Below the pieces are notes generated by a model. It made no database searches. It was not told the DNA's origin and saw only the letters and a program-made list of their open reading frames with translations. 55,720 nt of DNA from a virus (lineage: Duplodnaviria > Caudoviricetes), in IMG/VR virus record IMGVR_UViG_3300022685_000009, positions 1 through 55,720 of that record; one strand, given 5' to 3'. Made by a program: the position numbers and the translations under genes. Shown piece after piece: positions 33,382 through 55,720 of the stretch; the first letter of the stretch is position 1; each line of letters begins with the position of its first letter.

Positions 33382-33728
33382 TCTTCATCTCCAAAGTCAG
33401 GGCGGCTCGGCTGGGTAGGGACAAAGATGATGTCCTTGTCCCGCACGTGCCGGTCGCCCTCGATTGTCAACATGTGGCGAACGACCACCTCGCTTTCCAA
33501 CTCGATGCGAGCGATCAGGTTGCGATCTCGTAGTCGTTTCAGCACCTGATACATGTAGTCCCGACTCGTTACCTTGCCGGTCACGCGATACAGGTAGACC
33601 AGAAGCTCGTCGATCGTGGCTGGGCCACGCTCGTTCATGTATGCCATCGTCAGGTCGTGCGTGTTGTGCTCCGTTCGACCCACCAGTTGTTCCGCCAGCT
33701 CGGGCGGTAAATCATTTGCAGTCGGCAT
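33378..33728 (-). CDS. Winged-helix-like DNA-binding protein
   Basis: GGAG RBS; ATIDELLV.LYR..G...R.Y.YQ.L.RL. Confidence 0.55.
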   Translation of the reverse strand: MPTANDLPPELAEQLVGRTEHNTHDLTMAYMNERGPATIDELLVYLYRVTGKVTSRDYMYQVLKRLRDRNLIARIELESEVVVRHMLTIEGDRHVRDKDIIFVPTQPSRPDFGDEE

Positions 33729-35094
33729 AACTCTCTCCTGCGTGTGCCTCCCCAAAGACCGGCAAGTCCGGCCACCACTCCGGCGACCTACCGAAGATTT
33801 CTTCTGCCCGATCCAACACCGGCTGTTTGTCCACGTGGTCGGGCACCACGCAGACGCTCTCATCGTGGATGGACATGACCGTGCGACACGCCGGGTCGAA
33901 CTCAGCGGTCAGCGCCGTGTCCAGCTCCACCTGTTGTTCAAACACCACGTTGCGGGCGACCGCTTGGCAGATATTCTCAAATGCCTTGGCGCCCCAGATA
34001 CGCACGTCCTCCTTCGCGGAGCCTCGGCCACCAGCCCAGCGGGTGTAGCTCAGCTCACCGTCCTGTCGCCGTAGCTCGGGGTAGGTGATGGACAGCCCCG
34101 TCCTTGGCATCGTGAAGCCCGCGACGCCCTTCTCTACCGACGGGTTGGCATAGACGATCTCGTCCATCCACCAGCCCTCGGCTTCGCCACGCCTCAGCTT
34201 GTTCAAGATGTAGTCGATCTGCTTCCAGACCCGAACGATCTTGGGGAAGGTGCTACGGTAGAGCGCCACGATCCGCATGGCTTCCTCCGCTTCGATCTCC
34301 ACGCCCCAGTTAAACGATGCGTTCATGAACCCCTGCCAGCCGGTGCCGTACTGGAGCGAGAGCATGGCAATCTTGCCTATCAGTCGCTCAGATTCCGTGA
34401 CCTCGTCCTCGGTCTTTCCGTACAGGTGGGCAGCGAACAACCGGTATAGGTCGAAGTCAGGGTCGTGCATGCGCTCGACCACCTCCCACTCCCCGGCGAT
34501 GCACATGGCGATGCGCAGTTCGATGTTGCTGCTGTCCACGGCGAACATCCAGAAGTTATCCGGTGCGATCACCGCCTTCCTCAGCGGCGACTTGCGCCCC
34601 AGATTCTGCGGGTTGCCGCCGCCACCCATCCCGCCGCTCAACCGGTGGGTAGTCTTCGCTCCCGACAGGTTGAGATCGACGGGCCACGTGCCTCGGTTGG
34701 CCACGTCCAGATAAGACTGCGCCCTCGTTTCGTTGATGCTGGACTTCACTCGCAACCGGGCGGCAACCAGCTTGGCTACCTCCTCGTTCTCGTGTTCTTG
34801 CAGCGCCACGAAATCCCGGTCGGTCTTGCTGAAAGCGTACGTCTCCTTGCCCGTGGTAGGAGACACCTTCGTCGGTGGCTCCACACCCAGCCCTTTCAGC
34901 AGGGTGGCAAGTTGCGCGTTGCTGTTCAGCGCCTTCTTGTTGGCAGCGACGCAGCTCTCAATGGCTGCTTGCTTCTCGCTCTCTTCGATGGCGATCAGCT
35001 CACCTAGCGGGTTGGGGTCCAGCTCCAGCACGGGGTCGGTGAACATGCGGGTCACGATGTCCACGGTTCTCAGGTTGAAATCCAGACTGTTCAT
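33712..35094 (-). CDS. polA: Family A DNA polymerase, polymerase domain (split gene)
   Basis: Motif A DSSNIELR, motif B RLIGKIAMLSLQYG, motif C IHDE; own GGAGG RBS. Confidence 0.9.
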   Translation of the reverse strand: MNSLDFNLRTVDIVTRMFTDPVLELDPNPLGELIAIEESEKQAAIESCVAANKKALNSNAQLATLLKGLGVEPPTKVSPTTGKETYAFSKTDRDFVALQEHENEEVAKLVAARLRVKSSINETRAQSYLDVANRGTWPVDLNLSGAKTTHRLSGGMGGGGNPQNLGRKSPLRKAVIAPDNFWMFAVDSSNIELRIAMCIAGEWEVVERMHDPDFDLYRLFAAHLYGKTEDEVTESERLIGKIAMLSLQYGTGWQGFMNASFNWGVEIEAEEAMRIVALYRSTFPKIVRVWKQIDYILNKLRRGEAEGWWMDEIVYANPSVEKGVAGFTMPRTGLSITYPELRRQDGELSYTRWAGGRGSAKEDVRIWGAKAFENICQAVARNVVFEQQVELDTALTAEFDPACRTVMSIHDESVCVVPDHVDKQPVLDRAEEIFGRSPEWWPDLPVFGEAHAGESYADCK

Positions 35095-35651
35095 GCCGCA
35101 GCCCTCCGTTGCATGCTCGTGTAGAAGATGTTGTAGAGCATATGCGTCTTGTCGCAGTCGCCGATGCAGTACACGCCCAGCTCGTGCGCCTCCTCTTTGG
35201 ACAGCCTACGCTTGCCCTCAACACTAAACAGGGCCGTTTGGTCTTTGATCTCGCCCGGCAGCAGCAGCTCGGTCAACGCTTTCAGCGAAGCGGAACGCAA
35301 GCTGTTCCCGTACAACATGTAGGCAAGGGAGCGGGTGCAGACCCAGCCCATCGGTCTTGTGTTGTAGTGGTGCGACAGCACCAGCCCGTCGAACTTGGCG
35401 TTGTGCGCCAGCATGACATGACCGGAGAAGTCCACCTTGTCGAAGAACGCTTTCACGTTCTTGGCTCCGTAAATCCACCTCGTCTGGTTGAACCCTTTCT
35501 TCACACCAACCCCGTGCGTCAGCCAGCGCGGGTGCCGTATGTACTCCTCGGTGTTCTGGTGGCTGAAACCCACCTTCTCCTTCTTGGAGAAGAAAGTTTC
35601 GAAGTCCACCGTTATCACCTTGTCGGGATGGAACATCTGCATGTCGCTCAT
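35091..35651 (-). CDS. 3'-5' exonuclease domain of family A DNA polymerase (split gene)
   Basis: ExoI DFET, ExoII HNAKFD, ExoIII YCIGD. Confidence 0.85.
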   Translation of the reverse strand: MSDMQMFHPDKVITVDFETFFSKKEKVGFSHQNTEEYIRHPRWLTHGVGVKKGFNQTRWIYGAKNVKAFFDKVDFSGHVMLAHNAKFDGLVLSHHYNTRPMGWVCTRSLAYMLYGNSLRSASLKALTELLLPGEIKDQTALFSVEGKRRLSKEEAHELGVYCIGDCDKTHMLYNIFYTSMQRRAAA

Positions 35652-37364: not shown

Positions 37365-37813
37365 GCTGCCTCCTCAAAAATGTCATCCCATGGCCCCCAG
37401 TGTTCACTGCGAACCATTTGCTTAAGGGTTTCTTCTGGGGTGTACCGACGCACTTCGTCGTGGTCGATCTCGCCCAGCTCGTAGTAGTACTGGCGGGGAA
37501 TGTTCACCGCCTGACCGTTGGAGTAGTCCACCATGACAGTCAGGTGATTCATCTTCTCGCCAAGATCGATCTCCACCCACGCATGGGTGTGGCGGCGTCC
37601 GTCTAGGGGCCGGGTCACGCTGCCGTGGACACACCTCACCGACTTGATGTCAGCGTCGTACTTCGCCACCAACTCGTCGTCAATGAGGGCGATGCCTTCG
37701 GACACACCGGGTTCACTCATCAGGAACAGGCGGTCGGCGAAAGCGCCGGCGATGCTTGCCGCCACCACGAAACAATTTCCGTTCGCTTTCTCAGTCGTTT
37801 TCTTCGGGTACAT
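37361..37813 (-). CDS. Transglutaminase/papain-like fold protein
   Basis: GNCF...HG...HAWVE...D Cys-His-Asp pattern. Confidence 0.55.
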   Translation of the reverse strand: MYPKKTTEKANGNCFVVAASIAGAFADRLFLMSEPGVSEGIALIDDELVAKYDADIKSVRCVHGSVTRPLDGRRHTHAWVEIDLGEKMNHLTVMVDYSNGQAVNIPRQYYYELGEIDHDEVRRYTPEETLKQMVRSEHWGPWDDIFEEAA

Positions 37814-38196
37814 CAGGTTGCCTCCTTGTTGGCGGTGTTGGGAACCAGCGCCTCGTAGTGCTGGCGTAGGGCGGTCTTGAGTTGTTGCGCTTCAAGAACG
37901 ATCTCGTCCAGCAGCGTAGTCACGCGCTCGTCACTCAGGTCATCGCACCGGTTCAGGGTGATGGCGTTGCTGGCCACGATGTACACCCGCACCTCGGAGC
38001 CGATAAAGTTTTCCACCATGGTGCGAAGCTTGATGCTTGCTACCAGCAGGTCGGTAACAAAGAGGCGCCAGTCCGTCTGCGCTTCGGGGTTACCGGCTTG
38101 CTGGGCGATGTCGGTCAGCAAGTACTGGATCGTGCCGTGTTCGTTCTTCAGGTTTCTCTCCGCTGCGAGATACAGCGATGCGGTTGTGTTGCTCAT
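37813..38196 (-). CDS. Hypothetical protein
   Basis: AAGGAG RBS overlapping a 17-bp palindrome. Confidence 0.7.
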   Translation of the reverse strand: MSNTTASLYLAAERNLKNEHGTIQYLLTDIAQQAGNPEAQTDWRLFVTDLLVASIKLRTMVENFIGSEVRVYIVASNAITLNRCDDLSDERVTTLLDEIVLEAQQLKTALRQHYEALVPNTANKEAT

Positions 38197-38394
38197 GTCG
38201 TTGTCTCCTTGCTAGGTCTTAGCAGTCTCGGTTGTGAAAGGCAGCCTCCCCACCCCGGCGAACCGGGGCATGGTGGGGAGGCTTGGTTGCGGCTGCATCC
38301 ACGTAGGTACATGAACCTGATCATCAGGCGGGGGCGCCCTACGCTTTGCGGTATCGGCGGGCCGCACCGCCGATAGGAAAATGCGCCCCCCTTT

Positions 38395-39900
38395 CTACAT
38401 CTTCTCCATCGGCAGGACGCAGGTCTTGCCCAGTCCCATGCGGTTGGCTTTGACGATGAACTTGTCGGTGCACCCCCACCCGTTGTTAACGAGCCCCCAC
38501 AGCAGGGGCTTCATGCCAAGGCGGGTGCGCCAAAAATCGTTGACCTCTCGCACCTCGTAATCGGACACGCCGCCGTCAGTCAGGTAGCTGATCACGGCAC
38601 AGTCGCTGTGCTCCTTGGCGATGCGTTCGAAGGCGGGCATGAAGTGGGTGCCACCTCCGCACTTGCGGCGGCGAGTGTCGATCGTGTCGCCGGGCTTGTA
38701 GCTGAACACACCCTCGGGGGGGATGTCATCGGAACACCAGATCACTACAGCCTCGTCGAACTGGACGCTGTCGAGTGCGTGCTGAAGCTCGGCGAGAGCG
38801 TAGCTGATAGCCTGTCCGCTCGTGCTTCCCGACGAGTCGATAACGAACACAATCTTTCCCAACTCCTTGCCAACCTTGCCGGGTCGGATCGGTTGGTTAC
38901 GAGCCACGCTGCGACGTGACCTACGGGAGTAGCTGAAGCTGGTCGGGCCGTTGGACTCAGCGTAGCGGCTGAGCTGCTGCCGCCAGCCGAAGGTGGCTCG
39001 ATACTGCGAGCGTTCGATCTCGCGGATGAACGGGTCAGGCTCGCCACGCCCCTCGCTGATGCCACGCATCGGCTGTGTCATGCGCTCAGCGTTGTGCGAC
39101 TTGGCGGCGTTGTCCAGCTCCATCTCCTGAATCTCCTGCTCGCTGGGCACGTTGTCGATGTCGCCGGCGTACTCGTCCGGCAGCATGATGTCGTCACCGG
39201 CGCCAGCTTGGGCGTCATCGGGGGCGTCGCCCTCGTCGTCACCTGCTCCGCCTGCCCCGCCTGCGTCGTCGTCGTCGGTGTTACCGTCGTCGTTCGTCGC
39301 CTGCTTGTCGGCAGGGTCGTCGCTCGTGTCCGGCTCGTCGGCAGGGGGTGAGCCTGCGCCGGCACTGTCGTCACCTGCGCTGGTCTGCTCGCTGTCTTCG
39401 GGCGCACCGGCGCCGGGGTTACTCGGCGGCTGAAAGGCGGAGGGGTTTTTAAGCAGCTCGTTGGCGATGGACTCGGTGGTGTGACTCATCGGGTTGCACC
39501 GGGGGTCGTACAGCCAGCCATCCATGAGCGGCAAGCCCCACTCGTGCTTGATGATCCAGTTGATGAAGTAGTCCTGCGCTCGGTTGAAAACGTCCAGCAG
39601 TTCTTTGCGAGGCACGTCGGGGTGCAGCTTCGCCCACCGTTCGAAGCGGGGGAAGAAGTTAAGGAACTTGTGGTAAACCTCATGCACCAGAGCTGACATG
39701 CACAGCTCGACGCTGGCAGCCGCGAAGTAACTCGGGGCGTACCAAATCTTGCGGACGCAGTCGGTAGCAGCGGTGCGCACCGACTCGCGTGCCACGATCT
39801 GCATTTGCATCAGGTACATGGCGATGGTGACGAAGCGCACTTCCGTTTGCATGCGGTACACCGCACGTTGAAAGTTGCTGACTTCAGGTTCGTTGTTCAT
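38395..39900 (-). CDS. DUF2201-like metallopeptidase + vWA protein
   Basis: TAATD, HEVYH zincin motif, acidic linker, MIDAS DSSGS, GGGT, TDG. Confidence 0.85.
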   Translation of the reverse strand: MNNEPEVSNFQRAVYRMQTEVRFVTIAMYLMQMQIVARESVRTAATDCVRKIWYAPSYFAAASVELCMSALVHEVYHKFLNFFPRFERWAKLHPDVPRKELLDVFNRAQDYFINWIIKHEWGLPLMDGWLYDPRCNPMSHTTESIANELLKNPSAFQPPSNPGAGAPEDSEQTSAGDDSAGAGSPPADEPDTSDDPADKQATNDDGNTDDDDAGGAGGAGDDEGDAPDDAQAGAGDDIMLPDEYAGDIDNVPSEQEIQEMELDNAAKSHNAERMTQPMRGISEGRGEPDPFIREIERSQYRATFGWRQQLSRYAESNGPTSFSYSRRSRRSVARNQPIRPGKVGKELGKIVFVIDSSGSTSGQAISYALAELQHALDSVQFDEAVVIWCSDDIPPEGVFSYKPGDTIDTRRRKCGGGTHFMPAFERIAKEHSDCAVISYLTDGGVSDYEVREVNDFWRTRLGMKPLLWGLVNNGWGCTDKFIVKANRMGLGKTCVLPMEKM

Positions 39901-39974
39901 GTCGATCTCCTAGTTGCTGCCGCCTCGGTGTGAGGCGGCATGTTCGTTGACAACCTGCTGCTAAGGTTTAGCAA

Positions 39975-41114
39975 TCAGGCAAAGGAAAGCAGTTCGTCGG
40001 CGCCGTTGCCAAGCTGGCTCTCCAACTCCTTGCGGGCCTCGGCTGCGCCGCTACGGGATACGTTCTGCCCGGCCTCCATGCGGGTGGCAAGCTGGCCGAT
40101 GTTCTTCGCCAGCGAATCGCGGAGCTGCTCATTCTTCTTGAGCGTGTCGATGTCCACACCGTTGGTGATGGCGAGTGCCTCGGTGGCGTTGCGGGTCAGC
40201 GCACTGTCGCCGGTGACCTCGCCGATAGCTTGCGCCTGCTCAGCCTGCGCTCGTAGGTTGTCGATCAGCTTGGGGTTCAGCGGCACCTTGCGCTGGGACT
40301 TGCGCTTGCCCGTGGTGTTGTTCATCTTCTGCACCGTCTCAGCATCGCTTGCCAGCATGGCGGCAGTGAACGTGAGCGTGTTGGTGAACACAACGCTGAA
40401 GTTCTCCCAGCCCTTGAGCAGGTGGTCCTGCACCCACTTGAGCGTGTTCGCCTTGGCTTGCGCAGCGATGTCGTTGCGGGCCACGTCATCCATGTTGATG
40501 CGGATGTCGGTGGCCGGGAACTCGATGTACTCCAGCTCGATCGACCAGCGGTTCGACCACTCTTCGAAGTCTGGCCACAGTTCAGGGTCGAACATGGTGT
40601 TCAGCTCCAGCTCGGTGTCACGGCGCAGCTCACCCCACGCTTTCTCCAGCGCCTCCTTGCCCTCCTGCTGTGCGGTGCGGCATCGATCCACCGCCATCTC
40701 CAGCGCAGCGAGGCGGCGGCGTAGCACCACTGTCCACGTGCCATCCCACTTCGACAGTCCGAAGTTGGCGTTGCTCTCGTTGGCGGCGTGACCGCCGGCA
40801 TTCTCGGCCTTGCCCACAGTGAGCAGCTCACGGGCGGCATGCATCGGTGCGGACACCGGCGTCACGGCGCCGTTGGCGAACAGCTTATTTTTCACCGTCG
40901 CCCACTGCTCGTTGGCGTTGTGGCGGGAGGCAAGTGCGTTCCTCTCCGCCTTGTTGGCAACGGTGGTCGGTGCACGGGTGGCCACGATGCGGGCCAGCAC
41001 ACAGCCGTCGGCGATCTTCTGCACACGGGTGCCGCCGCCAATGGCTTCGCGGATGTCAGCGTCGCTGATCTCGCCGGTGCGGATCATTTCAAGTACGTCG
41101 TCTCGGTTACTCAT
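39975..41114 (-). CDS. Helical hypothetical protein, partner of the AAA+/vWA pair (DUF3150-like position)
   Basis: 379-aa ORF with RBS between the ATPase and vWA genes. Confidence 0.7.
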   Translation of the reverse strand: MSNRDDVLEMIRTGEISDADIREAIGGGTRVQKIADGCVLARIVATRAPTTVANKAERNALASRHNANEQWATVKNKLFANGAVTPVSAPMHAARELLTVGKAENAGGHAANESNANFGLSKWDGTWTVVLRRRLAALEMAVDRCRTAQQEGKEALEKAWGELRRDTELELNTMFDPELWPDFEEWSNRWSIELEYIEFPATDIRINMDDVARNDIAAQAKANTLKWVQDHLLKGWENFSVVFTNTLTFTAAMLASDAETVQKMNNTTGKRKSQRKVPLNPKLIDNLRAQAEQAQAIGEVTGDSALTRNATEALAITNGVDIDTLKKNEQLRDSLAKNIGQLATRMEAGQNVSRSGAAEARKELESQLGNGADELLSFA

Positions 41115-41158
41115 GTCTCATTCCTCTCGGTTGGGTTGGGTTGCTAAGACTTAGCAGG

Positions 41159-42259
41159 TCAGTCAGACCGGCGCAGTTCGTTGGTGCGGGTGTGGTACTG
41201 CTGCGCCACGCTGGTGGCGAACAGCTCGGGGTGGCGCTTGAGCACTGGATCAACGACCGCCCCCTGCGTCTCAAGCGGGAGCCTCTCAACGTAGCGCATG
41301 ACAGTGTCGAAGTTGTCCGGCGCCGTGCGGTTGCCGACGTTGGAGCACAGCATCATCATGCTGGCGGGGTCGTTGGGGATCGGCGCCTCGCTTGGTGACG
41401 ACAGGATGGCAGAGAAAGGTACCAGCTTGTCGCGCAGGGCAAACACGGCGGCGATCTTGAGCGCAGCGGCGTCATGAATGTGACGGGCAAGGGTCTGCAC
41501 TCGCATGCCGTGGGTGATCTCGGTAGCTGTAGCCTCGCAGTACCGCTCCAGCGCATTCATCGCGCGGCTGGCGGCATGCAGGGAGCGAGGGGTGCTGTTC
41601 CGCATGCGGGTCGGATCATAGTCCTTGATCAGGCCGTCACCTTCCATTTTCATGGCGGCGATGACGATAGGATTCTCCCGCTGCTCCAGCCCCCACTCGA
41701 TGCGCTCCTGCGCAGTCGGGCCAGTCCACCTGATGTGGCCGTGCCTGTTGCCGGTGACCGCATTGTCGATGCACTCCAGCGCACCGTCTTCGACACCGTT
41801 GGCGAGGCCGATGCGGAACACGTGCTCCGGCCCAGTCCAATGCCCAACACGGGGGCGGCGCCCTTCCATGAGCATCATCGCCACCTTGTTGGCACCCTTG
41901 AGCTTGATCTCATCGATCACGAGGGTGTCACCGTAGCGCAAGCCGCTCAGCGTGGGGTGCAGGTGTGACTGGAGCTGGTCGCTACGGTCAACGTAAAGGG
42001 GGCCGGGGAAATCATAGTCCTCGTACAGCCCGATGCGCACCGTGTGCGTCTGCGGCCCGTCAGGGTGGAGCAGGTCGGGGTCGAACCCGTCCTGCATGGC
42101 GGCGGTGTACGCCCCGTCTTCGGTGATGGCTTCGGCGATCTCGGTTTTGCCCAAACCGGGAATGCCTTCGACCACCGTTGTGTTACCGGCGGCGCGGTCA
42201 ACGCCAAGCGCCAGCTTCAGCGCCGCAACGCCGTGTACTACATGCATTTCCTTGTTCAT
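41159..42259 (-). CDS. MoxR-like AAA+ ATPase
   Basis: Walker A GIPGLGKT, Walker B LVIDE, sensor TPRS. Confidence 0.85.
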   Translation of the reverse strand: MNKEMHVVHGVAALKLALGVDRAAGNTTVVEGIPGLGKTEIAEAITEDGAYTAAMQDGFDPDLLHPDGPQTHTVRIGLYEDYDFPGPLYVDRSDQLQSHLHPTLSGLRYGDTLVIDEIKLKGANKVAMMLMEGRRPRVGHWTGPEHVFRIGLANGVEDGALECIDNAVTGNRHGHIRWTGPTAQERIEWGLEQRENPIVIAAMKMEGDGLIKDYDPTRMRNSTPRSLHAASRAMNALERYCEATATEITHGMRVQTLARHIHDAAALKIAAVFALRDKLVPFSAILSSPSEAPIPNDPASMMMLCSNVGNRTAPDNFDTVMRYVERLPLETQGAVVDPVLKRHPELFATSVAQQYHTRTNELRRSD

Positions 42260-42345
42260 GTCGATCTCCTAGTCGGTGGCTGCTAAGTCTTAGCAGCCTG
42301 TCTCGGTTGTGCTCGTCGTTGCCGACGTGCGGGTAAAGAAACCCC

Positions 42346-42374
42346 ACTATACCACATATCAGGTGGGGTATCAA
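42346..42374 (-). promoter_or_regulatory. Sigma70-like promoter for the AAA+ operon
   Basis: TTGATA-17 nt-TATAGT with TG extended -10; inverted repeat ACCCCAC/GTGGGGT overlaps it. Confidence 0.7.
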
Positions 42375-42392
42375 GTCTTGTGTAATGTACGA

Positions 42393-42797
42393 TCAGGTAA
42401 GGGCTGTAAGCTCCCATGATTCAGCCACTTTGTTAAGACGCGCGGGCCATTCGTTTGGGTTATGGTTATCGTGCGTACTTTGCAGATCGGCCAGCAGCAG
42501 CCAGTCCTCCGTAGTTTTCGCGCCGACCTCGTGCCTCAGCACCTCGTACAAGGGGCGTTGTACTTCGGATGGTTCCTCTCCTCTGCGCACATGATCGGCT
42601 ATCGCCTGCGCCACAGCGTTCTCCATGTCCTGCGTATACTTGCTGTCCGGGATCAACGCTCCGACAGCGCACTTGCTACCGTGGTACCCCCGGTACATGC
42701 AGCGGGTGGAGTTCATGTACGGGTCGCGCACTTCCGCCTTTTTGTTTTGCGTCAGCAGGTGGGCGGCCACCTTTTCAAATACCGCTTGTTTATCCAT
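42393..42797 (-). CDS. Conserved phage hypothetical protein
   Basis: CMYRG..G.KCAVGALIPD and LQ..HD pattern; GGAG RBS. Confidence 0.7.
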   Translation of the reverse strand: MDKQAVFEKVAAHLLTQNKKAEVRDPYMNSTRCMYRGYHGSKCAVGALIPDSKYTQDMENAVAQAIADHVRRGEEPSEVQRPLYEVLRHEVGAKTTEDWLLLADLQSTHDNHNPNEWPARLNKVAESWELTALT

Positions 42798-42800
42798 TGT

Positions 42801-42989
42801 TTAGTTCTCCATGTTGATGATGATTTCAGTCATAACGTCGTCGCTTATGACGGGTACGGGGTGGCACTTGCCGTCACCGTGGTGTTGCAGCCACAGCCAG
42901 TGGCTTAGCAACATGCCGGCGACGAAGAGCCCCGCTGCCAACATGATGGCAAGGAGCGCGTGCCAATCGGTTACAGCTCTGTCAGTCAC
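42801..42989 (-). CDS. Small membrane protein
   Basis: GGAGG RBS, GTGA overlap, one hydrophobic helix. Confidence 0.55.
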   Translation of the reverse strand: MTDRAVTDWHALLAIMLAAGLFVAGMLLSHWLWLQHHGDGKCHPVPVISDDVMTEIIINMEN

Positions 42990-43177
42990 GAGAGCCTCCG
43001 CTTTTCCAGCGACCGCTTGGCGACCTCGCACTCGTGCTTGAGGCGCTCGATCAGGCTCACGGTGGTGGGGCCGATCGCTCCTTCAAACTGGTGCGGTACC
43101 CGCTCCAGCATCCATGCGAGGGCGTCTGCCTCGCTCTCGGTCACGGCCAGCGTGATCCATTGCTTGTGTTGTGTCAT
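42986..43177 (-). CDS. Hypothetical protein
   Basis: AAGGAG RBS. Confidence 0.65.
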   Translation of the reverse strand: MTQHKQWITLAVTESEADALAWMLERVPHQFEGAIGPTTVSLIERLKHECEVAKRSLEKRRLS

Positions 43178-43235
43178 GCGTATCTCCTTGCCGCCGTGTC
43201 GGCGGCGATTGCTAAGGCTTAGCGGTACGCCAGCC

Positions 43236-43703
43236 TTACATGTTGTCGAAGTAGTCGTTCAGGGTTTGCAGGTCGCGCTCGTCCGGCTCTGCCCGGCAGT
43301 CTGCGCAGATCACTACGCCGTCCAGACTGTGCACGGTCACGGTGCCACCCGCGCTACGGGTTTGCGAGACTGTTTCTTCCCGCTCCCAGCTATCGCTACC
43401 GCACTCGGGGCAGGTGGGGTCGGCGGGCACGAGCAACACCAGTTTCCAGACGTACCACGTCGAGACCTCGTCGAAAAACGACACCTTCGTCAGGTGCCCG
43501 CTCTCGCTGGTCTCGCACTCGCACCGCTCGTTGATGAACGCACCGACGGGGGTGCCGGAGTGGCTACGCCACGGGATGGTCTCGTTTTCGATGGACTTAA
43601 TCATTCCGCGCTCAGCGGCGGCGGCGGTGTCGTACTTCGGGCCTACCCACGACTCCAGCTTGTCGCGCTTTGTGCGTGCACCGGTAAATGTGTGCTCAAG
43701 CAT
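43236..43703 (-). CDS. Zn-ribbon-containing hypothetical protein
   Basis: CPEC...CADC; AAGGAGG RBS. Confidence 0.65.
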   Translation of the reverse strand: MLEHTFTGARTKRDKLESWVGPKYDTAAAAERGMIKSIENETIPWRSHSGTPVGAFINERCECETSESGHLTKVSFFDEVSTWYVWKLVLLVPADPTCPECGSDSWEREETVSQTRSAGGTVTVHSLDGVVICADCRAEPDERDLQTLNDYFDNM

Positions 43704-43724
43704 GCTTGCCTCCTTGTTGGCAGT

Positions 43725-43766
43725 GTTGATGTTGATGTTGATGTTGATGTTGGTGTTGGTGTTGAT
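43725..43766 (-). repeat. Intergenic hexamer repeat (GTTGRT)x7
   Basis: Directly visible. Confidence 0.9.
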
Positions 43767-43786
43767 GAGCTGCTAAGTCTTAGCAG

Positions 43787-44110
43787 TTACGCGCGTCCGC
43801 CCAGTGCGGCCACGCGCTGCTCCCACTCGCGGATTTTCCGCTTGCTGGAGAAGAACCCCGGCGGGTTCGCCGTGAGCTGGTGTAGCTCCTGTTCGCGCGG
43901 GTCGGTGGTGGCCTCGGCGAGCACCCGCTGGGCCTCTTGTAGCTCGCGGTCTGCCTCCGCCTTGTCGGCGAGGAGCGCCAGCGCCTGCTTGATTGCAGCC
44001 GTATCTTCATTCGCCTGTTTGATGGCTGCCTGCACATCCTTCGGATCAGGCAGGTCGATGGTCTCGTCCGCGCCAAGGTAGTTGCGGATCAGGTCAATGT
44101 TCACGTTCAT
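43787..44110 (-). CDS. Hypothetical coiled-coil protein
   Basis: AGGAG RBS; stop abuts palindrome. Confidence 0.7.
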   Translation of the reverse strand: MNVNIDLIRNYLGADETIDLPDPKDVQAAIKQANEDTAAIKQALALLADKAEADRELQEAQRVLAEATTDPREQELHQLTANPPGFFSSKRKIREWEQRVAALGGRA

Positions 44111-44175
44111 GTCGTACTCCTATGTCATGCCCTAGGGCACCATGCCCTAGGGCGGGGGGTGTCTCCTGCTAAGAC

Positions 44176-44394
44176 TTAGCAGGTCGTAACTTTCGCAACC
44201 GGATACACCGGATACGTGAGCTGGCTCACGTGCAGGATGCGTCCGGTCTCGTGGCACACCACGTGGCGACCGTCGACCTTGTGATAGTCCCAGTCATCCG
44301 CGAGAACGGTGTACGTCTTGAACGCACCGTCGGCGACGGTGTCGCCCGGTGCGGCCTTGCGCACGGTGCGCAAGGCTTGCTCAGTTTTGCTCAT
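44176..44394 (-). CDS. Hypothetical protein
   Basis: AGGAGG RBS; stop codon supplied by the palindrome. Confidence 0.65.
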   Translation of the reverse strand: MSKTEQALRTVRKAAPGDTVADGAFKTYTVLADDWDYHKVDGRHVVCHETGRILHVSQLTYPVYPVAKVTTC

Positions 44395-44428
44395 GTTTAC
44401 CTCCTATAAGTTGCTAAGACTTAGCAGG

Positions 44429-44728
44429 TCAGATAACCCTGACCCACTTGTAGGTGTGGCGCGGGAAGGCACGCGACGTTCCCTGCCGCCGCATCTCCCA
44501 TCGCCGGACGCGCACACGGTCAGGCATGACCGCGCAAACGTGCGCGGTGCGGGCGTTTTTCTTCCACTCCGCATTGTTGGAGCCGCGCGATTTTTCGACC
44601 TGCTCTTGGCAGGTCTCTCGGGCGCGGGCTATGGCGTAATCAACGTTCTGCGCTAGGGCATCAACGATGATGCGCTGGTCTCCCTGTTCGAAGGTGACTT
44701 CGTACAAAGCCAACGTGTTCGTATCCAT
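44429..44728 (-). CDS. Hypothetical protein
   Basis: AGGAGG RBS. Confidence 0.65.
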   Translation of the reverse strand: MDTNTLALYEVTFEQGDQRIIVDALAQNVDYAIARARETCQEQVEKSRGSNNAEWKKNARTAHVCAVMPDRVRVRRWEMRRQGTSRAFPRHTYKWVRVI

Positions 44729-44737
44729 GCGTACCTC

Positions 44738-44851
44738 CTAGCGGTAGCGGTTGCCCGCCTTGGGGAAGGCGGGGGTGCGGTGGGCGGGGGTGTAACGGGC
44801 AGGTTTTCCCCTGCCTTGTAACCAGTTGCTAAGTCTTAGCAGCAGCTTCAT
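44738..44851 (-). CDS. 37-aa basic peptide (MKLLLRLSNW...)
   Basis: GAGGAG RBS; palindrome lies within the first ten codons. Confidence 0.5.
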   Translation of the reverse strand: MKLLLRLSNWLQGRGKPARYTPAHRTPAFPKAGNRYR

Positions 44852-44918
44852 GGGGTGTTCTCCTCGTAAAATGTAAACGGCTTCCGCGCCTTGTGGGCTG
44901 CTAAGTCTTAGCAGCGGT

Positions 44919-45140
44919 TCACTTGTACAGGTGCGTGATATCCACGCACTTACTGGGTGCGGCGGCCTCGCGGCGCCACGCGCCCCTGTCCTTGTGCCAG
45001 CGGTTGACCTTCGCCTTGCCCGCTCTGGCACGTTGGCGCGAGGACATCCATGGCTTCCTTGTCTCCTCGATGGCAGCGATGGAGCCGCCAAGGCAGGAAT
45101 TCACCTGATGGCCGGTGTCGGCGCGTTTCTGTGGGTTCAT
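44919..45140 (-). CDS. Small basic hypothetical protein
   Basis: AGGAG RBS. Confidence 0.6.
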   Translation of the reverse strand: MNPQKRADTGHQVNSCLGGSIAAIEETRKPWMSSRQRARAGKAKVNRWHKDRGAWRREAAAPSKCVDITHLYK

Positions 45141-45262
45141 GCACTTGCTCCTATGTAGTGGGTGATGTCATGCACATATCTTGCTCTGGCATGGGTAAAA
45201 GCTGCTAAGTCTTAGCAACCTTTACCCATGCCGCCCCGTGCGGGGCGGCTGGGGGTGTGGGC

Positions 45263-45793
45263 TTACCCTTCGTCCTTCGTGAATTCGGCCACGAATGCCT
45301 GCAAGTGAGCCAGCGCCTCAGGTGCCCAAGCGGCGGCCTCGCTACGGTGCGCAGCGGCGACCAGCTTAGCGGCGGCTTCAACGTACGCATCCAGCGGGTT
45401 TTCCTTATCAGCGGCCTTGGGCTTGCCCAGTGCGGCCTTGCCGGCCTTGCAGAGCGCGTTGAACGTCATGTCCGCCGCGTCATCGCCGGACACCCAGATG
45501 CCCACGGTGGCTTGCGCCATGTGGGTCACATAGCCACGGTAGGACGAGTCCGTACCGGCGCCCAGTTCCTCCCAGATCGTGCGGGGGCAACCTTCGCCCT
45601 TTTCCATGAGCAGAGCGCGGAAGCCGTCGACGTGCTCAAGAGCGGCCACCGTAGGCGTGCCATCCTTGCGCAGCGGCTTAGCGGGGCCGGACTTGGCGGC
45701 CTCGCGGGCCGTGATCAGGAACAGCGCGTTCGACTTGGCAAACTTGCGCAGGTTGGCGATGAACTGGGCGGTATTGATGATCGACTTAGCCAT
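45263..45793 (-). CDS. Ala/Lys-rich hypothetical protein, first gene of the leftward arm
   Basis: AGGAG RBS; followed by GC hairpin 45230-45249. Confidence 0.7.
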   Translation of the reverse strand: MAKSIINTAQFIANLRKFAKSNALFLITAREAAKSGPAKPLRKDGTPTVAALEHVDGFRALLMEKGEGCPRTIWEELGAGTDSSYRGYVTHMAQATVGIWVSGDDAADMTFNALCKAGKAALGKPKAADKENPLDAYVEAAAKLVAAAHRSEAAAWAPEALAHLQAFVAEFTKDEG

Positions 45794-47099
45794 GGTTGAA
45801 TCTCCTATGTTGGCTGTTGAAATTGGGCAGAATGCCCGTGATTGTGCGCCGCAGGGCGCTTACCGGAACGCAACTGCTAAGACTTAGCAGCTGCACTCGG
45901 ATAAACGCCCGCCTCGGTGTGAGGCGGGCATCATCAATTCCGCATATTCGAAGCTCATTTTTACGTGGCAACCGGTGCGATTCGCAGCGAACATCCGTCT
46001 AGGGTAGTTGCCGGGCTCCGTCATCAGCTGCCAGCCATAGACTGGGGGCAAACGTAAGCGCTGTGATGGGCACTTACTGGGAGCTCGGGCATCCAAGCCG
46101 CAACAAGGGCCGGATGTTCGCTTCGCAGGGTTCAACCTGAGCATGGACTAACCCACCTTGCACCCGGCCCACGAAATCACTTCGTTGGCTACGCCCCGTT
46201 CTCCGGAGCGGCTATGTGCTTGATGGCACTTGTACCCCGCAGAAGCCGTCTCTGCGGTTGGCGGGACCGATGCTGCCAGCCTCGCCGCCCATCAGAAGAC
46301 CGCGCCGCGCCGCACGCGCACGCGTGAGGGCTGCTAAGACTTAGCGGCGTCATGCCTTCGGCATGGTCGGGCTCGAAACCCCGATTTGCAGGGCGACGCC
46401 GCCTCATTTCGGACCCTGCTGAGCGGCGAAGCCGCCGCGCCGTCCCACACGCCACACGCACAGGCTGAGCGGCGCTGGGCCTCGCGCATACGTATATATG
46501 CATGGAGTTCGGAAGCGGTCTTAGATTCCGCCTGACACACCTGATACCCCCCTTAGAGGAGCAAGAAAACCTTCTTTTTGCCCGTAGCCGCCGCGAAATC
46601 GGGTGTCGATCCAAAAGATTAGACGTTAGAAAACTCAGATTAGCGACGGTGTCGCCTTTGAAACCTAGCTGCCACGCGGCTTTCAGAGTTTAGTCGCCAA
46701 AAACCGACTAAAGTCGCGAAAAAATGATGTCCGACAAAAAACGAAAAAGCTATTTAACTTAAAACGAAAAACAGGTTAACACCCAATTTGACACCGTTTA
46801 AGTTAACAAAGCCTTGTACATATAAAGAATACAATTACACTACTTATATGTATTAACTAACTAAACTTAGAGCTGGCTGCCCTGAAACCCTCACTCTGCT
46901 TAGGTTTGAAGTTTAGCAGCCTTCTGCTTATCTTGGCCGAATCACTGCTTATCTTTCGTAAGTGGTTGATTTGCGGTATCCCACCGCCTGACGCCGCGCC
47001 ACCCTTGACTTTCTTAATTCCCTGTGGCCAAATACACGGAAGGCCCGGCTGCTACCAACAACCGGGCCTCCCTACCAACAAGGTCGCAAGGAGACCCCG
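45794..47099. other. Non-coding divergent control region (hairpin-dense part plus AT-rich part); candidate origin or genome end
   Basis: Strand switch point; no RBS-supported ORF; AT-rich 46680-46870. Confidence 0.6.
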
Positions 47100-47615
47100 A
47101 TGGATAAACCCACGCTAAACGACTTCTCAACCGCTGACAATCACGTGGACTTCGACGCCTATGAAGCCGCGAAGCTGGAGTACTACCGCTACCGAAAGAA
47201 GGTCAGGGAAGAGGGGCGTCGCATGGGGCGCCCGCCCAAGGTGTCGAATGAGAACGCCGCGAAACTGACGGAAGCCTACTTTGTAAAGAACCAGCGCGGC
47301 GACGCGCTTGAAGCGTTCGCTCGCGACGAGTTGGGGTTGAAGGTGTCCACTCCCACCCTGTATGCAACCATCACCCGGTTTGCTCAGGGGTCGGATAAGT
47401 TCAAAGGGTGCCGCCCCACCCAGCCGGGAGGTAACCCTTTGTTCAACGACTATCAGGCTATGCTGCTGGCGAGAGCGAAGGCCGAGTCCGGCCTGACGCC
47501 GCGAAAGATTCAACGTATGCTCACCGAGCGCTTTGGCGCTGAGCCAAGCAAAAGCCTAGTGAAGAACACCCTGAAGCGTGGCAAAGCCATACTGGAATCC
47601 CGAGGAGAACTGTGA
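47100..47615 (+). CDS. Tandem HTH DNA-binding protein (candidate regulator)
   Basis: GRPPKVS...GLKVSTPTLY and ...FGAEPSKSLVKNTLKR resemble two HTH units; AAGGAG RBS. Confidence 0.6.
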   Translation: MDKPTLNDFSTADNHVDFDAYEAAKLEYYRYRKKVREEGRRMGRPPKVSNENAAKLTEAYFVKNQRGDALEAFARDELGLKVSTPTLYATITRFAQGSDKFKGCRPTQPGGNPLFNDYQAMLLARAKAESGLTPRKIQRMLTERFGAEPSKSLVKNTLKRGKAILESRGEL

Positions 47616-54726: not shown

Positions 54727-55524
54727 ATGAACGTTTTTAGAGACCCAGTAGACGAGTGGCTCAAGGAGACTATCGGCTCCGCGTCCAACAAAATGGTCAC
54801 GCTGCTGGACAAGCTGACTGACCAACAGTACCTGTTTTGTCTGGAGTACGTGAAATGCGGTTCGCCGAGAAAGGCCGCCGAAAAGGCGAAACTGCCGAAG
54901 TCGTCCAACCCCCATATGCTCGTGCATCTACCCAAGGTGGCGGCCTGCATAAACATCCTGAACGCCAAGCGTGAGGCGGACGCCGGCGAGAAGTCTACCG
55001 CCGAGATCGTGGATCGCCTGAGCAAGACGCCTCTGCTGGAGGAAGACGATTTCGACTTCTCCGAGGACGCCGTGCTGGATCGCGAGGAGAAGCTCGCTCC
55101 CAACGGGGAGGCATTGAAGGGCCAGTCTGCCAACGAGCTGCTAGAGAACGTTCACGCTGCCACGGTGGATAACGGCATCATGCAGCTCCCCAAGGTCAAG
55201 GTGCCGCAGGCCCAGTCTTTCGGCCCGCAGTGGATTATCGAGCGGTTTGTGACTGTAGCCGAGCGGTGTCTTCAGATCGAGCCGGTGTACGACCGCAAGG
55301 GTCGCCCGATCGGCCAGTTCAAGTTCGAAGCCAACGCCGCGTTGAAGGCGCTGGAGATGTTGGGCAAGACCATGGCCATGTTCCGTGACCGGGTGGAGGT
55401 CGCGCACGAGGTGCAGAACTTCTCCGATCAGGAGCTGGATGGCCGCCTCAAGGTGCTGGCCGAGCAGTTCCCCGAGTTCAAGACGCTGATTGAGGGGGAG
55501 GTTGAAGTTGTCAACGCCGACTGA
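54727..55524 (+). CDS. terS: Terminase small subunit
   Basis: LTDQQYLFCLEY...AAEKA N-terminal pattern; KALEMLGK..MF; directly precedes terL. Confidence 0.75.
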   Translation: MNVFRDPVDEWLKETIGSASNKMVTLLDKLTDQQYLFCLEYVKCGSPRKAAEKAKLPKSSNPHMLVHLPKVAACINILNAKREADAGEKSTAEIVDRLSKTPLLEEDDFDFSEDAVLDREEKLAPNGEALKGQSANELLENVHAATVDNGIMQLPKVKVPQAQSFGPQWIIERFVTVAERCLQIEPVYDRKGRPIGQFKFEANAALKALEMLGKTMAMFRDRVEVAHEVQNFSDQELDGRLKVLAEQFPEFKTLIEGEVEVVNAD

Positions 55525-55720
55525 AATTCCGTTCGAAGCGACCAAAGCTGGATTGCCGGAAGACAAACGCGCCGCAAAAGAAGAACTTCTCAAACTGCTG
55601 GAAGAGCGAGTCAAACGAAAGAACGAGTCAAAACTCCACGACTTTTTCACCGACACCGGTCCCAACTCCCGCGACGGTTACCGCAAGCACATCGCGTTCT
55701 TCAACGCCGGACGTGATTAT
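55508..55720 (+). CDS. terL: Terminase large subunit, N-terminal part (continues at base 61)
   Basis: GAGGGGGAG RBS, TTG start, open frame MSTPTEIPF...YRKHIAFF in register with frame 1. Confidence 0.8.
   Translation, partial: MSTPTEIPFEATKAGLPEDKRAAKEELLKLLEERVKRKNESKLHDFFTDTGPNSRDGYRKHIAFFNAGRDY

Follow-up and report, generated by a model that had tools for sequence, protein, structure and literature searches.

A short palindrome repeated through the early genes of an uncultured podophage

What purpose is served by a short palindrome that is repeated again and again between the early genes of a phage? The question is raised by a 55,720-nt stretch of phage DNA, which was analysed as a whole and is called the window here. 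A sequence-only reading had listed 13 copies of CTGCTAAG-N-CTTAGCAG and had offered four explanations, i.e., recombination joints, a multi-operator array for a dimeric protein, mRNA-processing hairpins, and sites protecting first-injected DNA. Here we describe the sites, compare them with those of related phages and weigh these and other explanations.

The palindrome and its setting

All 13 copies are present where that reading had placed them. A search of the 55.7-kb window for CTGCTAAGNCTTAGCAG with up to two mismatches returned 14 matches, i.e., these 13 and one at 11872, which the earlier list had lacked; 100 dinucleotide-preserving shuffles returned a mean of 0.03 and a maximum of 1. The site is a perfect dyad of 15–17 bp, in which nearly invariant 7-bp half-sites flank a free central base (A, T or G on the + strand) that has no orientation. 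The core 15-mer, TGCTAAG-N-CTTAGCA, is exact in 10 copies and carries one mismatch in four, no core site with two or three mismatches occurs in the window, and the background begins at four (10 sites). Since every site has at most one core mismatch and none has two or three, this tight distribution fits one recognising factor and not a loose structural requirement. Thirteen of the 14 copies lie within 8.1 kb, spaced 72 to 1749 bp apart with genes between them. The copies, listed without strand, are:

46331–46347: copy 1, one mismatch; within the non-coding leader of the leftward operon
45874–45890: copy 2, exact; the first early gene starts 80 nt downstream
45202–45218: copy 3, part of a longer inverted repeat (arms 45188–45209 and 45211–45232, 22 nt each, 91% complementary)
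44898–44914: copy 4, exact; stop codon of 44919–45140 lies 4 nt before it
44826–44842: copy 5, within the doubtful 37-aa ORF 44738–44851, in the motif's only open frame
44411–44427: copy 6, 1 nt past the stop of 44429–44728; next ATG 16 nt on
44166–44182: copy 7, exact; supplies TAA as the stop codon of 44176–44394
43770–43786: copy 8, exact; 0 nt from the stop of 43787–44110
43209–43225: copy 9, 17-mer with two mismatches; 10 nt past the stop of 43236–43703
42280–42296: copy 10, exact; 5' untranslated region, with the conserved promoter on one side and the ATPase gene on the other
41141–41157: copy 11, ATPase gene stop 1 nt before it (gene end 41159)
39958–39974: copy 12, 0 nt from the stop of 39975–41114
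38209–38225: copy 13, the operon's last; overlaps the ribosome-binding site (CCTAGCAAGGAG) of 37813–38196
11872–11888: copy 14, in frame within the late tail gene 8800–12123

The surrounding features are:

42346–42374, minus strand: sigma-70-type promoter with extended -10 (TTGATA-17-TGGTATAGT), conserved in a sister phage
45263–45793, minus strand: first early gene, encoding an all-helical protein of 176 aa; candidate binder
45794–46600, minus strand: leader of about 800 nt with no sign of coding; its predicted folding is better than that of shuffled sequence
46600–47100, no strand: AT-rich control region lying between two divergent operons, the leftward early one and the rightward one
47100–47615, plus strand: helix-turn-helix protein of 171 aa, the sole predicted one near the array; candidate binder

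The placements claimed earlier were borne out by fresh gene calls, with stop-to-motif gaps of 0 nt (39975, 43787), 1 nt (41159, 44429), 4 nt (44919) and 10 nt (43236), a stop codon supplied by the motif itself (44176–44394) and the overlap with a ribosome-binding site (38209). Overall, 11 copies follow a gene, and in seven of them the gap is 10 nt or less. On the other side, gaps to the next ATG go down to 12–20 nt, and several copies lie 12–26 nt before a start codon. The 13 early copies fall outside confident leftward-strand genes, the exceptions being a 7-nt overlap with a gene end (44166) and the doubtful ORF (44826). Intergenic sequence makes up 13% of 38197–45793, a figure that leaves out the doubtful 37-aa ORF containing copy 44826, and the 11 copies there are all outside confident genes bar the 7-nt overlap. 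Some of this bias follows from the motif itself, since on either strand it puts TAA and TAG into two of the three frames. The earlier statement that most intervals hold one to three short genes stood as to number (10 of 12 intervals, the majority with a single gene) but not as to size, three of the genes being 366, 379 and 501 aa long. Two of the 12 intervals, 46331–45874 and 44898–44826, are without a convincing gene.

In 37500–47500 only one sigma-70-type promoter is close to a copy, which it precedes by about 50 nt. Its conserved counterpart in the sister phage likewise has that phage's own palindrome after it. No copy overlaps a recognisable promoter, and no promoter hexamers at a fixed distance from the palindromes were found in the sequences inspected. 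The control region has no full palindrome site. It does contain half-site-like sequences (CTGCTTA at 46896, 46924 and 46945; TTAGCAG at 46913). Their enrichment is weak, the density of 2 hits per 100 bp being attained in 2.5% of windows. Rfam gave no match.

Copy 14 encodes L-L-R-L-S as TTG CTA AGG CTT AGC. These are mostly uncommon codons, four of the five being used for 7–14% of their amino acid, and their probability is 3e-5 given the peptide and the phage codon usage. None of 200 synonymous resamplings of the full gene set produced such a site, and relative to the sister phage the copy is not an insertion.

Symmetry, folding and relatives

The sister phage (G001; 61,690 bp) has a capsid protein 83% identical to that of the window and an ATPase about 56–62% identical, and contains no copy of the window's motif. 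Instead, its syntenic early region holds five exact copies of TGTTACT-N-AGTAACA, one of which has the same conserved promoter upstream and the same ATPase gene downstream. Because the palindromes have been exchanged at equivalent places, a co-evolving pair of protein and site is likely. More distant relatives carry other palindromes; those of L041 and StenR_269 abut or overlap the ribosome-binding site, and StenR_269 shares the motif family TTTAA-NN-TTAAA with DES1, although their early proteins are mostly unrelated. The hosts of these two are related (Stenotrophomonas, Xanthomonas).

The symmetry includes the centre of the site in each of the four palindrome families (window G-N-C, sister T-N-A, L041 AG|CT, StenR_269 AC|GT). 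A hairpin loop needs no such self-complementarity, whereas a dimer on duplex DNA does, and the symmetry is that of duplex DNA. The arms are evidently under purifying selection: the near-identical relatives L038 and L039 differ by 75 substitutions in 2,958 aligned columns, yet four palindromes have kept all 56 of their arm positions. One substitution changed a central base, and the copy concerned has three more, at positions -2, -1 and +1.

Folding is weak in most copies and does not favour the transcript. The 42280 copy with flanks reaches -14.2 kcal/mol and three other copies -3.3 to -4.4, with -3.5 in the sister phage, -6.5 in L041 and -1.7 in StenR_269. The mRNA strand is the better folder in 5, 4 and 5 of the 13 early copies with flanks of 4, 12 and 20 nt, and the opposite strand in 8, 9 and 8. 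Long stems occur only at 45874 and 45202 (-20 to -38 kcal/mol with flanks), where pairing is best on the mRNA strand, through G-U pairs; at 45874 it is the flanks that lengthen the stem on that strand. Ten of the 12 single-base departures from consensus put a C-A mismatch into the mRNA-strand stem and a G-T pair into that of the opposite strand. As DNA hairpins on the template strand, the best copy reaches -9.4 kcal/mol and others -2.7 to -3.1, and the relatives -1.6 to -5.4.

The idea that the motif might be a host repeat found no support, as no stretch among the genomes of 185,579 species had it in multiple copies. The exact 17-mer occurred in 29 stretches of scattered taxa, always as a single copy, and in six single-copy stretches of IMG/VR. 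Single-copy hits indicate that the 17-mer is not a host repeat family; the scan was of exact matches, with which degenerate host sites remain compatible. These comparisons of sequence show that the sites exist, are under selection and are both phage-specific and lineage-specific.

Competing explanations

The explanation that we favour, at a little under an even chance, is that the palindromes are operators for a phage-encoded dimeric DNA-binding protein that blocks or insulates early transcription. This develops the earlier suggestion of a multi-operator array, which is favoured by the centre symmetry, the weak and strand-neutral hairpins, the sister's different palindrome, and arms that stayed intact while adjacent and central bases changed. 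The recognition sites would be double-stranded DNA with 7-bp half-sites, and the binder a homodimeric, sequence-specific protein encoded by the phage. As it accumulated, this protein would occupy the 13 sites in the leftward early and middle transcription unit and the 14th in the late tail gene, and the bound sites would block or insulate host RNA polymerase at many points, with the outcome that early genes would be shut down or metered. Protein and sites would co-evolve, giving sister lineages different palindromes. We infer that a protein binds the sites, that the phage encodes it and that its binding impedes transcription.

There are two candidate binders. The product of 47100–47615 has a transposase-type bipartite fold, not that of a classic dimeric repressor, with no homologue in the sister phage or among 1.84 billion representative proteins. 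The product of 45263–45793 is weakly similar to the sister phage's first early protein (pairwise E 4e-4), which suggests a fast-evolving positional counterpart. It counts against the operator explanation that no binder can be named, that the only helix-turn-helix protein lacks a sister homologue, that no copy overlaps a recognisable promoter and that the control region has no full site. The location of the sites within transcription units leaves only a roadblock or insulator role, and the authors who described the Cluster O repeat (see below) thought a transcriptional role unlikely for it. Furthermore, the long mRNA-strand stems at 45874 and 45202 hint at an RNA role there, and the palindromes next to ribosome-binding sites in L041 and StenR_269 would also suit translational control.

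The sites might be bound by a host regulator or nucleoid protein, with each lineage carrying its own host's operator in order to tie early expression to the condition of the host or to titrate that protein. The failure of protein scans to yield a nameable phage-encoded binder is in keeping with this, as is the common TTTAA-NN-TTAAA of StenR_269 and DES1, which have related hosts despite mostly unrelated early proteins. We nonetheless consider it quite unlikely, given that the exact 17-mer is single-copy wherever present in the 185,579 species' genomes, that full-text literature containing both arms and 'operator' gives primer sequences only, and that sisters with 83% identical capsids and wholly different sites would need different hosts.

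Action at the RNA level is unlikely, although less so than a host factor: here the palindrome would be a 7-bp hairpin in a polycistronic early mRNA, read by a sequence-specific RNA-binding protein or endoribonuclease of phage or host, whose effect would be to split the transcript into pieces of gene size, to shield 3' ends or to regulate how the gene that follows is translated. RNase III cuts the early mRNA of T7 between genes, at long irregular hairpins of about two helical turns, and REP elements near stop codons affect the upstream gene. Like the T7 sites, the palindromes are conserved structured elements between stop codon and next ribosome-binding site in a polycistronic early transcript, with the close stop-to-motif spacing, the G-U-paired stems at 45874 and 45202 and the ribosome-binding sites abutted or overlapped in L041 and StenR_269 all pointing the same way. 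Unlike them, the stem is of 7–8 bp, and the RNase III requirement of about 20 bp of double-stranded RNA is reached, with flanks, by 45874 and 45202 only and not by the array overall. Long stems in two of 13 copies and an mRNA strand that is the better folder in only 4–5 of them also weigh against the earlier suggestion of mRNA-processing hairpins. The hairpins of most copies are weak (-1.7 kcal/mol in StenR_269), 10 of 12 consensus departures are C-A mismatches on the mRNA strand, and a hairpin does not explain symmetry across the would-be loop in all four families; copy 14 lies within a late coding region, and there is no Rfam match.

Recombination joints, i.e., short homology or recognition points for the gain, loss and swap of early accessory genes, would parallel proposals for T4-type PeSL motifs or integron attC sites. 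Among the genes lying between the ATPase gene and the control region, all but the first early gene lack a detectable sister homologue; the flanking genes are shared, and the majority of intervals contain a single gene. Set against this, in the one gene-replacement event that we could map, between L038 and L039, the breakpoints have no palindrome closer than 394 and 1177 nt, i.e., they are away from the motif, where PeSL-type breakpoints would fall, and one is in a repeated translation-start sequence. The sister has replaced the genes lying between those for VWA and T5orf172, where it has no palindrome, and ahead of the ATPase gene one palindrome has taken the place of another between a promoter and a gene that both stayed homologous. 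Pfam and PHROG scans of the predicted proteins found no integrase, recombinase or transposase catalytic domain in the 55.7-kb genome, and a 1-bp centre is too small for the staggered cutting that known site-specific recombinases carry out. Deletions in Cluster O phages did arise by recombination between dyad repeats (PMC4351075), and this speaks for joints, which we still regard as very unlikely here. A combined scheme is of similarly low probability: the palindrome and an unrecognised phage protein would form a punctuation system of insulating cassette boundaries and recombinase-free exchange points, through which co-infecting phages would trade anti-defence and host-takeover genes with the lineage's palindrome as a compatibility code.

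Promoter hairpins in phage N4 have a stem of 5–7 bp and a 3-nt loop. The palindromes match this shape, and as DNA hairpins with a 7-bp stem and 3-nt loop, extruded on the template (+) strand, they could be read by an injected virion RNA polymerase hidden in a cysteine-free virion protein of 2717 aa. Ten of the 12 consensus departures retain G-T pairs on the template strand, and the giant protein has 0 cysteines and about 2,000 residues without assigned function. The giant protein of a distant relative was guessed to be a virion polymerase, although its authors cite no homology evidence (PMC10747016). We nevertheless find this extremely unlikely. No polymerase domain or motif was found in the 2717-aa protein or elsewhere in the genome, with which a very divergent enzyme would be compatible, and the protein has no similarity to that of StenR_269. 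Several copies lie 12–26 nt from a start codon, one falls within a late gene, the palindromes of the relatives are too short and too rich in A+T to extrude, and conserved sigma-70-type promoters exist. The earlier suggestion that the sites protect first-injected DNA has no basis: the two ends of the record overlap by 60 bp within the large terminase gene as a result of assembly, and as such are not informative on physical ends.

Known systems and significance

The sequence-only reading took the array for an undescribed system, and here it was overtaken by a precedent. Cluster O mycobacteriophages carry a 17-bp dyad repeat, TGTTCGG-NNN-CCGAACA, in more than 30 (34) copies genome-wide, with function unexplained; its authors read it as sites for dimeric proteins and thought a transcriptional role unlikely (PMC4351075). 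This is the closest precedent, as a class and not as a homologous family. Both have 7-bp invariant arms, a free centre and multiple copies in one phage genome (14 here), both are enriched in the narrow gaps that separate the genes of a leftward operon and also have copies within coding sequence, and the repeat is absent from host genomes there and not repeated in the genomes of 185,579 species here. They differ in the centre (3 bp there, 1 bp here), in distribution (34 copies genome-wide, against 13 of 14 within 8.1 kb), in sequence, phage type and host, which are unrelated (a siphovirus of Mycobacterium there), and in the sister lineage with a different palindrome that is found here.

Other systems fit less well. 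Plasmid RK2 has a dozen short palindromic KorA/KorB operators for dimeric global repressors, some acting at a distance; these are likewise short palindromic sites spread over a replicon, but with half-sites in the opposite order, and Pfam found no KorA, KorB or ParB domain in any protein scanned. Integron attC sites, which go with a neighbouring IntI-type tyrosine recombinase and attI site, are imperfect inverted repeats of 57–141 nt with unpaired bases, and were rejected because the sites here are perfect palindromes of 15–17 bp in a 55.7-kb genome without a recombinase domain. A CRISPR array, with its regular period of repeat and spacer, was rejected on the spacings of 72 to 1749 bp with genes between copies, and REP/BIME elements, of which a host chromosome has hundreds spread by a RAYT transposase, on finding no multi-copy genome and no transposase. 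Stoperators lie in short intergenic gaps and co-evolve with their repressor. Those of Cluster A mycobacteriophages are many copies of one short site at which the phage repressor stops elongation (PMC9283540), and so resemble the present sites in being spread through transcription units. Stoperators are asymmetric, transcription-oriented and monomer-bound sites of temperate phages with an immunity repressor, whereas here the dyad is perfect and its centre without orientation. Pfam and PHROG scans of the window's predicted proteins found no stoperator-type immunity repressor or integrase families, so a stoperator-type temperate system is not matched and the phage looks virulent. T4-type PeSL are repeated motifs that flank small variable early genes and are linked to modular shuffling (PMC2839356, PMC4122927). 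The likeness is in the genes beside the motifs; the motifs there are described as composites of promoter and terminator, and here no promoter hexamers stand at a fixed distance. PeSL were rejected on the single promoter near a copy, about 50 nt upstream, and on ATG gaps down to 12–20 nt.

Dyad repeats scattered in phage genomes are a feature already reported elsewhere, and left unexplained in Cluster O. What is new here is the same architecture in an unrelated group, uncultured podophages of Gram-negative type, with the repeats concentrated in the early and middle operon and with closely related lineages that have swapped palindromes at equivalent places. Two specificities in otherwise similar genomes give a clean experimental handle. 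If the palindromes are exchange points, they would be relevant to the shuffling of accessory genes by phages. If they act as roadblocks or insulators in a virulent phage, such operators would offer a compact and portable means of gene timing or silencing.

A palindrome array among the early genes

Fourteen sites in the window match CTGCTAAG-N-CTTAGCAG with up to two mismatches, compared with a mean of 0.03 in shuffled sequence. All 13 copies listed by the sequence-only reading were recovered by this motif scan at their coordinates, together with one unlisted copy at 11872, and the placements relative to genes that it had described were all correct against independent gene calls. The 15-bp core is exact in ten copies and departs by one mismatch in the other four; no site carries two or three core mismatches, and the background starts at four. 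Between 38197 and 45793 all 11 copies fall outside confident genes, save for 7 nt by which one copy overlaps the end of a gene, in a region that is 13% intergenic, a figure that omits a doubtful 37-aa ORF containing the copy at 44826. With TAA and TAG in its sequence, the motif can be coding in only one frame per strand, and its stop codons explain part of this intergenic bias, but not all of it. The copies at 46331 and 45874 lie within ~ 800 nt upstream of the first early gene (45263-45793, minus strand), in sequence without a coding signature.

At 11872 the palindrome is part of the reading frame of a late tail gene (8800-12123), where it specifies L-L-R-L-S. At the equivalent position G001, a sister phage, has I-R-L-S and aligns without a gap, therefore this copy is not an insertion. 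Four of its five codons (TTG CTA AGG CTT AGC) are uncommon, each making up 7-14% of the codons for its amino acid, while AGC is the commonest serine codon in this phage. For this peptide the chance of that exact codon choice is 3e-5, and no site arose in 200 synonymous-codon resamplings of all genes, which shows that the DNA sequence itself is kept at 11872.

The window is the entire IMG/VR virus record (55,720 bp), and the "terminal repeat" of that record is a 60-bp overlap. The frame of the large terminase gene is open from base 1 and the small terminase gene ends at 55524, and in the sister phage the small terminase gene is followed directly by the large one; the record thus ends inside the large terminase gene, and its ends are an assembly join rather than physical genome ends. 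Pfam and PHROG scans of the window revealed a podovirus-like gene set, and no catalytic domain of an RNA polymerase, integrase, recombinase or transposase.

Gene content of the window (Pfam and PHROG scans)
Packaging and capsid: terminase with LAGLIDADG insert; portal; major capsid; SU10-type adaptor
Polymerase, helicases and nuclease: family A DNA polymerase, SNF2 helicase, DUF927 primase-helicase, PD-(D/E)XK nuclease
16455-24608: 2717-aa virion protein, lytic transglycosylase N-terminal and LPD38 domain C-terminal

From 25285 to ~ 45800 the genes are on the minus strand, running leftward from an AT-rich divergent region (46600-47100), and the rightward genes run on into the tail fibre, lysis, terminase and structural genes. 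A tRNA search found none. The virion protein contains no cysteines, and ~ 2,000 residues without recognised function separate its two domains. The large terminase gene (1-2367 and 55525-55720, across the record ends) carries LAGLIDADG_3 and Hom_end domains (Pfam); relative to its 494-aa counterpart in the sister phage it has ~ 250 extra residues, therefore it probably contains an intein or homing insert. Two overlapping ORFs, 33712-35094 and 35091-35651, encode the family A DNA polymerase, one of them a 186-aa exonuclease part and the other a 460-aa polymerase part, where the sister phage has a single 645-aa gene; a split gene, a frameshift and a sequencing error are all possible causes.

The ~ 800-nt leader from the control region to the first early gene (45794-46600, minus strand) has the same GC content at the three codon positions in every ORF. 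Compared with 20 shuffles its folding is the more favourable (z = -3.45), and the stretch could represent either an extended structured leader or a non-coding RNA made early. Searching Rfam gave no family at the gathering threshold and one chance-level microRNA match, in the leader. A gap of similar length is found in G001, with almost no sequence similarity to the window leader except TCTAAGGGGGGT. Several other repeated sequences accompany the array. Near-identical GC-rich hairpins of the type GCCGCCTC-N5-GAGGCGGC, without a clear U-tract, adjoin the palindromes at 39958 and 45874 (39919-39939 and about 45912-45934), and a GC-rich hairpin at about 45910-45935 lies near the end of the leader. 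Three genes nearly share the translation-start sequence CTAGGAGATCGACATGAAC (39895-39921, 42254-42280 and 44105-44131, minus strand), and G001 likewise repeats one of its own before three genes. A run of CAACAT/CAACAC hexamers (43715-43770) stands between the palindrome at 43770 and the start of gene 43236-43703, and CA-rich leaders precede several other early genes.

Palindromes in related phages

A near-identity search with 38000-46600 found no match among GenBank phages, none of which is close: the capsid protein is 38% identical to that of a Pseudoalteromonas phage and 29-33% to those of Stenotrophomonas phage StenR_269, Xanthomonas phage DES1 and Pseudomonas phage Rollin. No sequencing run covering 38000-47200 was found, RNA runs included. 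Searching IMG/VR with the capsid protein gave 13 loci, one of them from G001, a complete 61,690-bp record with a capsid 83% identical and most replication and structural genes 45-80% identical to those of the window.

The window motif, with up to two mismatches, has no copy in G001 or in four fragments of related records. G001 has five exact copies of TGTTACT-N-AGTAACA (shuffles, 0), all inside 386-4139, a region syntenic with the window array from the ATPase gene (downstream of the palindrome at 42280) to the divergent control region. Three further members of its clade (G002, L038 and L039) have the same five copies. As a single-protein query the ATPase had no match in IMG/VR; searching with alignments recovered the G001 clade and a distant contig, L041, only, and a metagenome scan added two further G001-clade contigs. 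L082 is identical to G001. Nearer ATPase relatives (88%, 78%, 77% and 73% identical) were found as proteins only, two of them encoded on ~ 60-kb contigs. The window and G001 share a conserved sigma-70-type promoter with an extended -10; in each phage its own palindrome comes next, and then the ATPase gene.

Conserved promoters upstream of the ATPase gene
42374-42346, minus strand, window: TTGATA-17-TGGTATAGT, conserved in G001
Upstream of the G001 ATPase gene: TTGACA-17-TGGTATGAT

Relative to a shared CCGAGAC the two palindromes fall on different sides, and strictly they therefore do not occupy one insertion point. G001 has a further sigma-70-type promoter, TTGACC-17-TGATATGTT (locus L026, about 16880-16900, minus strand), the -10 of which is overlapped by the half-site TGTTACT of its palindrome. 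It also encodes an Acb2/Tad1 hairpin-domain protein, of an anti-defence sponge family, and an Nmad5 nucleotide-modification-domain protein (locus L024, 14854-15090 and 780-1490), neither of which has a counterpart in the window.

More distant phages carry palindromes of their own. L041, with an ATPase 26% identical, has seven copies of TTTTCTTAGCTAAGAAAA between early genes, one of them 6 nt upstream of a TTGACA-17-TATTAT promoter, and exact IMG/VR scans found several copies of this palindrome in no contig but its own. StenR_269, which has no close relative within the phage collection, contains ten exact copies of TTTAACGTTAAA in early and middle gene gaps, often abutting the ribosome-binding site; the available part of its paper (PMC10747016) makes no mention of multi-copy palindromes. 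DES1 has TTTAA-NN-TTAAA 18 times (expected, 0.19). No repeated palindrome was found in Rollin, though it has replication genes in common with the window.

Recognition as DNA, RNA or recombination joints

Five lines of evidence favour recognition of the palindromes as duplex DNA over their action as RNA-level hairpins in early mRNA, one of the options raised by the sequence-only reading and now the less likely one. All four palindrome families are symmetric through the centre, where a hairpin loop cannot pair and needs no self-complementarity. Hairpin stability is not conserved, and the better-folding strand is inconsistent: among the 13 early copies, flanks of 4, 12 and 20 nt favour the mRNA in 5, 4 and 5 cases and its complement in 8, 9 and 8.

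RNA folding energies of the palindromes
Window copy 42280 with flanks: -14.2 kcal/mol
Three other window copies: -3.3 to -4.4 kcal/mol
G001 palindrome: -3.5 kcal/mol
L041 palindrome: -6.5 kcal/mol
StenR_269 palindrome: -1.7 kcal/mol

Ten of the 12 single-base departures from consensus produce C-A mismatches in the mRNA, and one palindrome is retained in a protein-coding late gene. Leaning towards RNA are the copies on either side of the first early gene (45874 and 45202), which sit in long stems with G-U pairs on the mRNA strand, and the palindromes of L041 and StenR_269, which touch the ribosome-binding site; such contact is, however, unavoidable for a 12-18 bp element in a ~ 35-nt gap of a compact genome. 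The remaining line in favour of duplex DNA comes from L038 and L039, between which there are 75 substitutions in 2,958 aligned columns and none in the arms of four palindromes, while one central base and positions -2, -1 and +1 of the same copy have changed. With only about 1.4 arm changes expected, this is suggestive of purifying selection on the arms rather than proof of it.

The proposal that the palindromes are joints for cassette exchange is not supported by the sole replacement that could be mapped. The nearest palindromes are 1177 and 394 nt away from the two breakpoints of the segment replaced between L038 and L039; the left breakpoint falls in GGAGTAACACCATGACC, a translation-start sequence that recurs ahead of three genes. 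G001 has also swapped the genes between its VWA and T5orf172 genes, where no palindrome is present. With one clean event only, this test and the evidence it provides against the motif as an exchange point are thin. In Cluster O phages recombination between dyad repeats has deleted DNA, according to the part of the description available (PMC4351075), and by analogy recombination at the palindromes here could be a side effect too.

Hairpin promoters of the phage N4 type are a less likely explanation. The window palindrome is shaped like the N4 promoter hairpins, and the absence of any cysteine from the 2717-aa virion protein fits this reading. That protein, however, shows no polymerase domain or motif and is not similar to the StenR_269 protein, and stable DNA hairpins are not predicted for the palindromes of the relatives. 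The "virion RNA polymerase" label of the StenR_269 protein is itself, in the part of the paper available (PMC10747016), a conjecture of its authors from size and composition.

A putative phage-encoded binder and the nearest known systems

Among the genomes of 185,579 species the exact 17-mer occurs in 29 stretches from scattered taxa, and in IMG/VR in six contigs, always as single copies, so the motif is not a host repeat family. A text search of the literature for the two arms plus 'operator' returned primer sequences only. That two sister phages have different palindromes points to a phage-encoded partner, which would change along with its sites. Only one protein near the array has a predicted helix-turn-helix (47100-47615; Pfam HTH_32, under the curated cut-off). 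Neither G001 nor a set of 1.84 billion representative proteins contains a homologue of it, and its single-sequence AlphaFold model is of low confidence (pLDDT 64). Similarity between the first early proteins of the window and G001 is faint (29% over 68 residues, pairwise E 4e-4); they are fast-evolving positional counterparts, as would be expected of a co-evolving binder. Word-based search and the Atlas gave no DNA-binding marks in them; the window protein had no homologue by the former and matched unnamed phage clusters only in the latter. The two phages also have in common a conserved small protein with a Rho_N/SAP-like tail, the N-terminus of which is too alike in both to account for a change of specificity. 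Half-site-like sequences in the G001 control region ranked top of 6,159 windows and those in the window control region clustered marginally or unremarkably, in a test confounded by AT-richness.

The palindrome array is a genuine, strongly non-random feature on which selection acts, and it is both phage- and lineage-specific. The most likely reading, which we hold tentatively, is the one that had proposed a multi-operator array for a dimeric phage protein: a putative phage-encoded dimer would act at these operators on transcription within the early operon, by a mechanism we infer. Cluster A mycobacteriophage stoperators are a precedent for phage proteins that can halt elongation at many intragenomic sites (PMC9283540, in part); unlike the window palindrome, they are asymmetric and a feature of temperate phages. 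At least one defining feature is missing here for each of the other systems compared: PeSLs, attC sites, CRISPR repeats, REP elements and RNase III sites.

The nearest described element is the 17-bp dyad repeat of Cluster O mycobacteriophages, which in the part of its description available (PMC4351075) has invariant 7-bp arms, a free centre and 34 copies, is enriched in the intergenic gaps of a leftward operon, is absent from host genomes and is unexplained in function. The suggestion of an undescribed system gives way in that Cluster O phages offer a precedent: the palindrome array is a variant of an already known, unexplained kind of phage feature.
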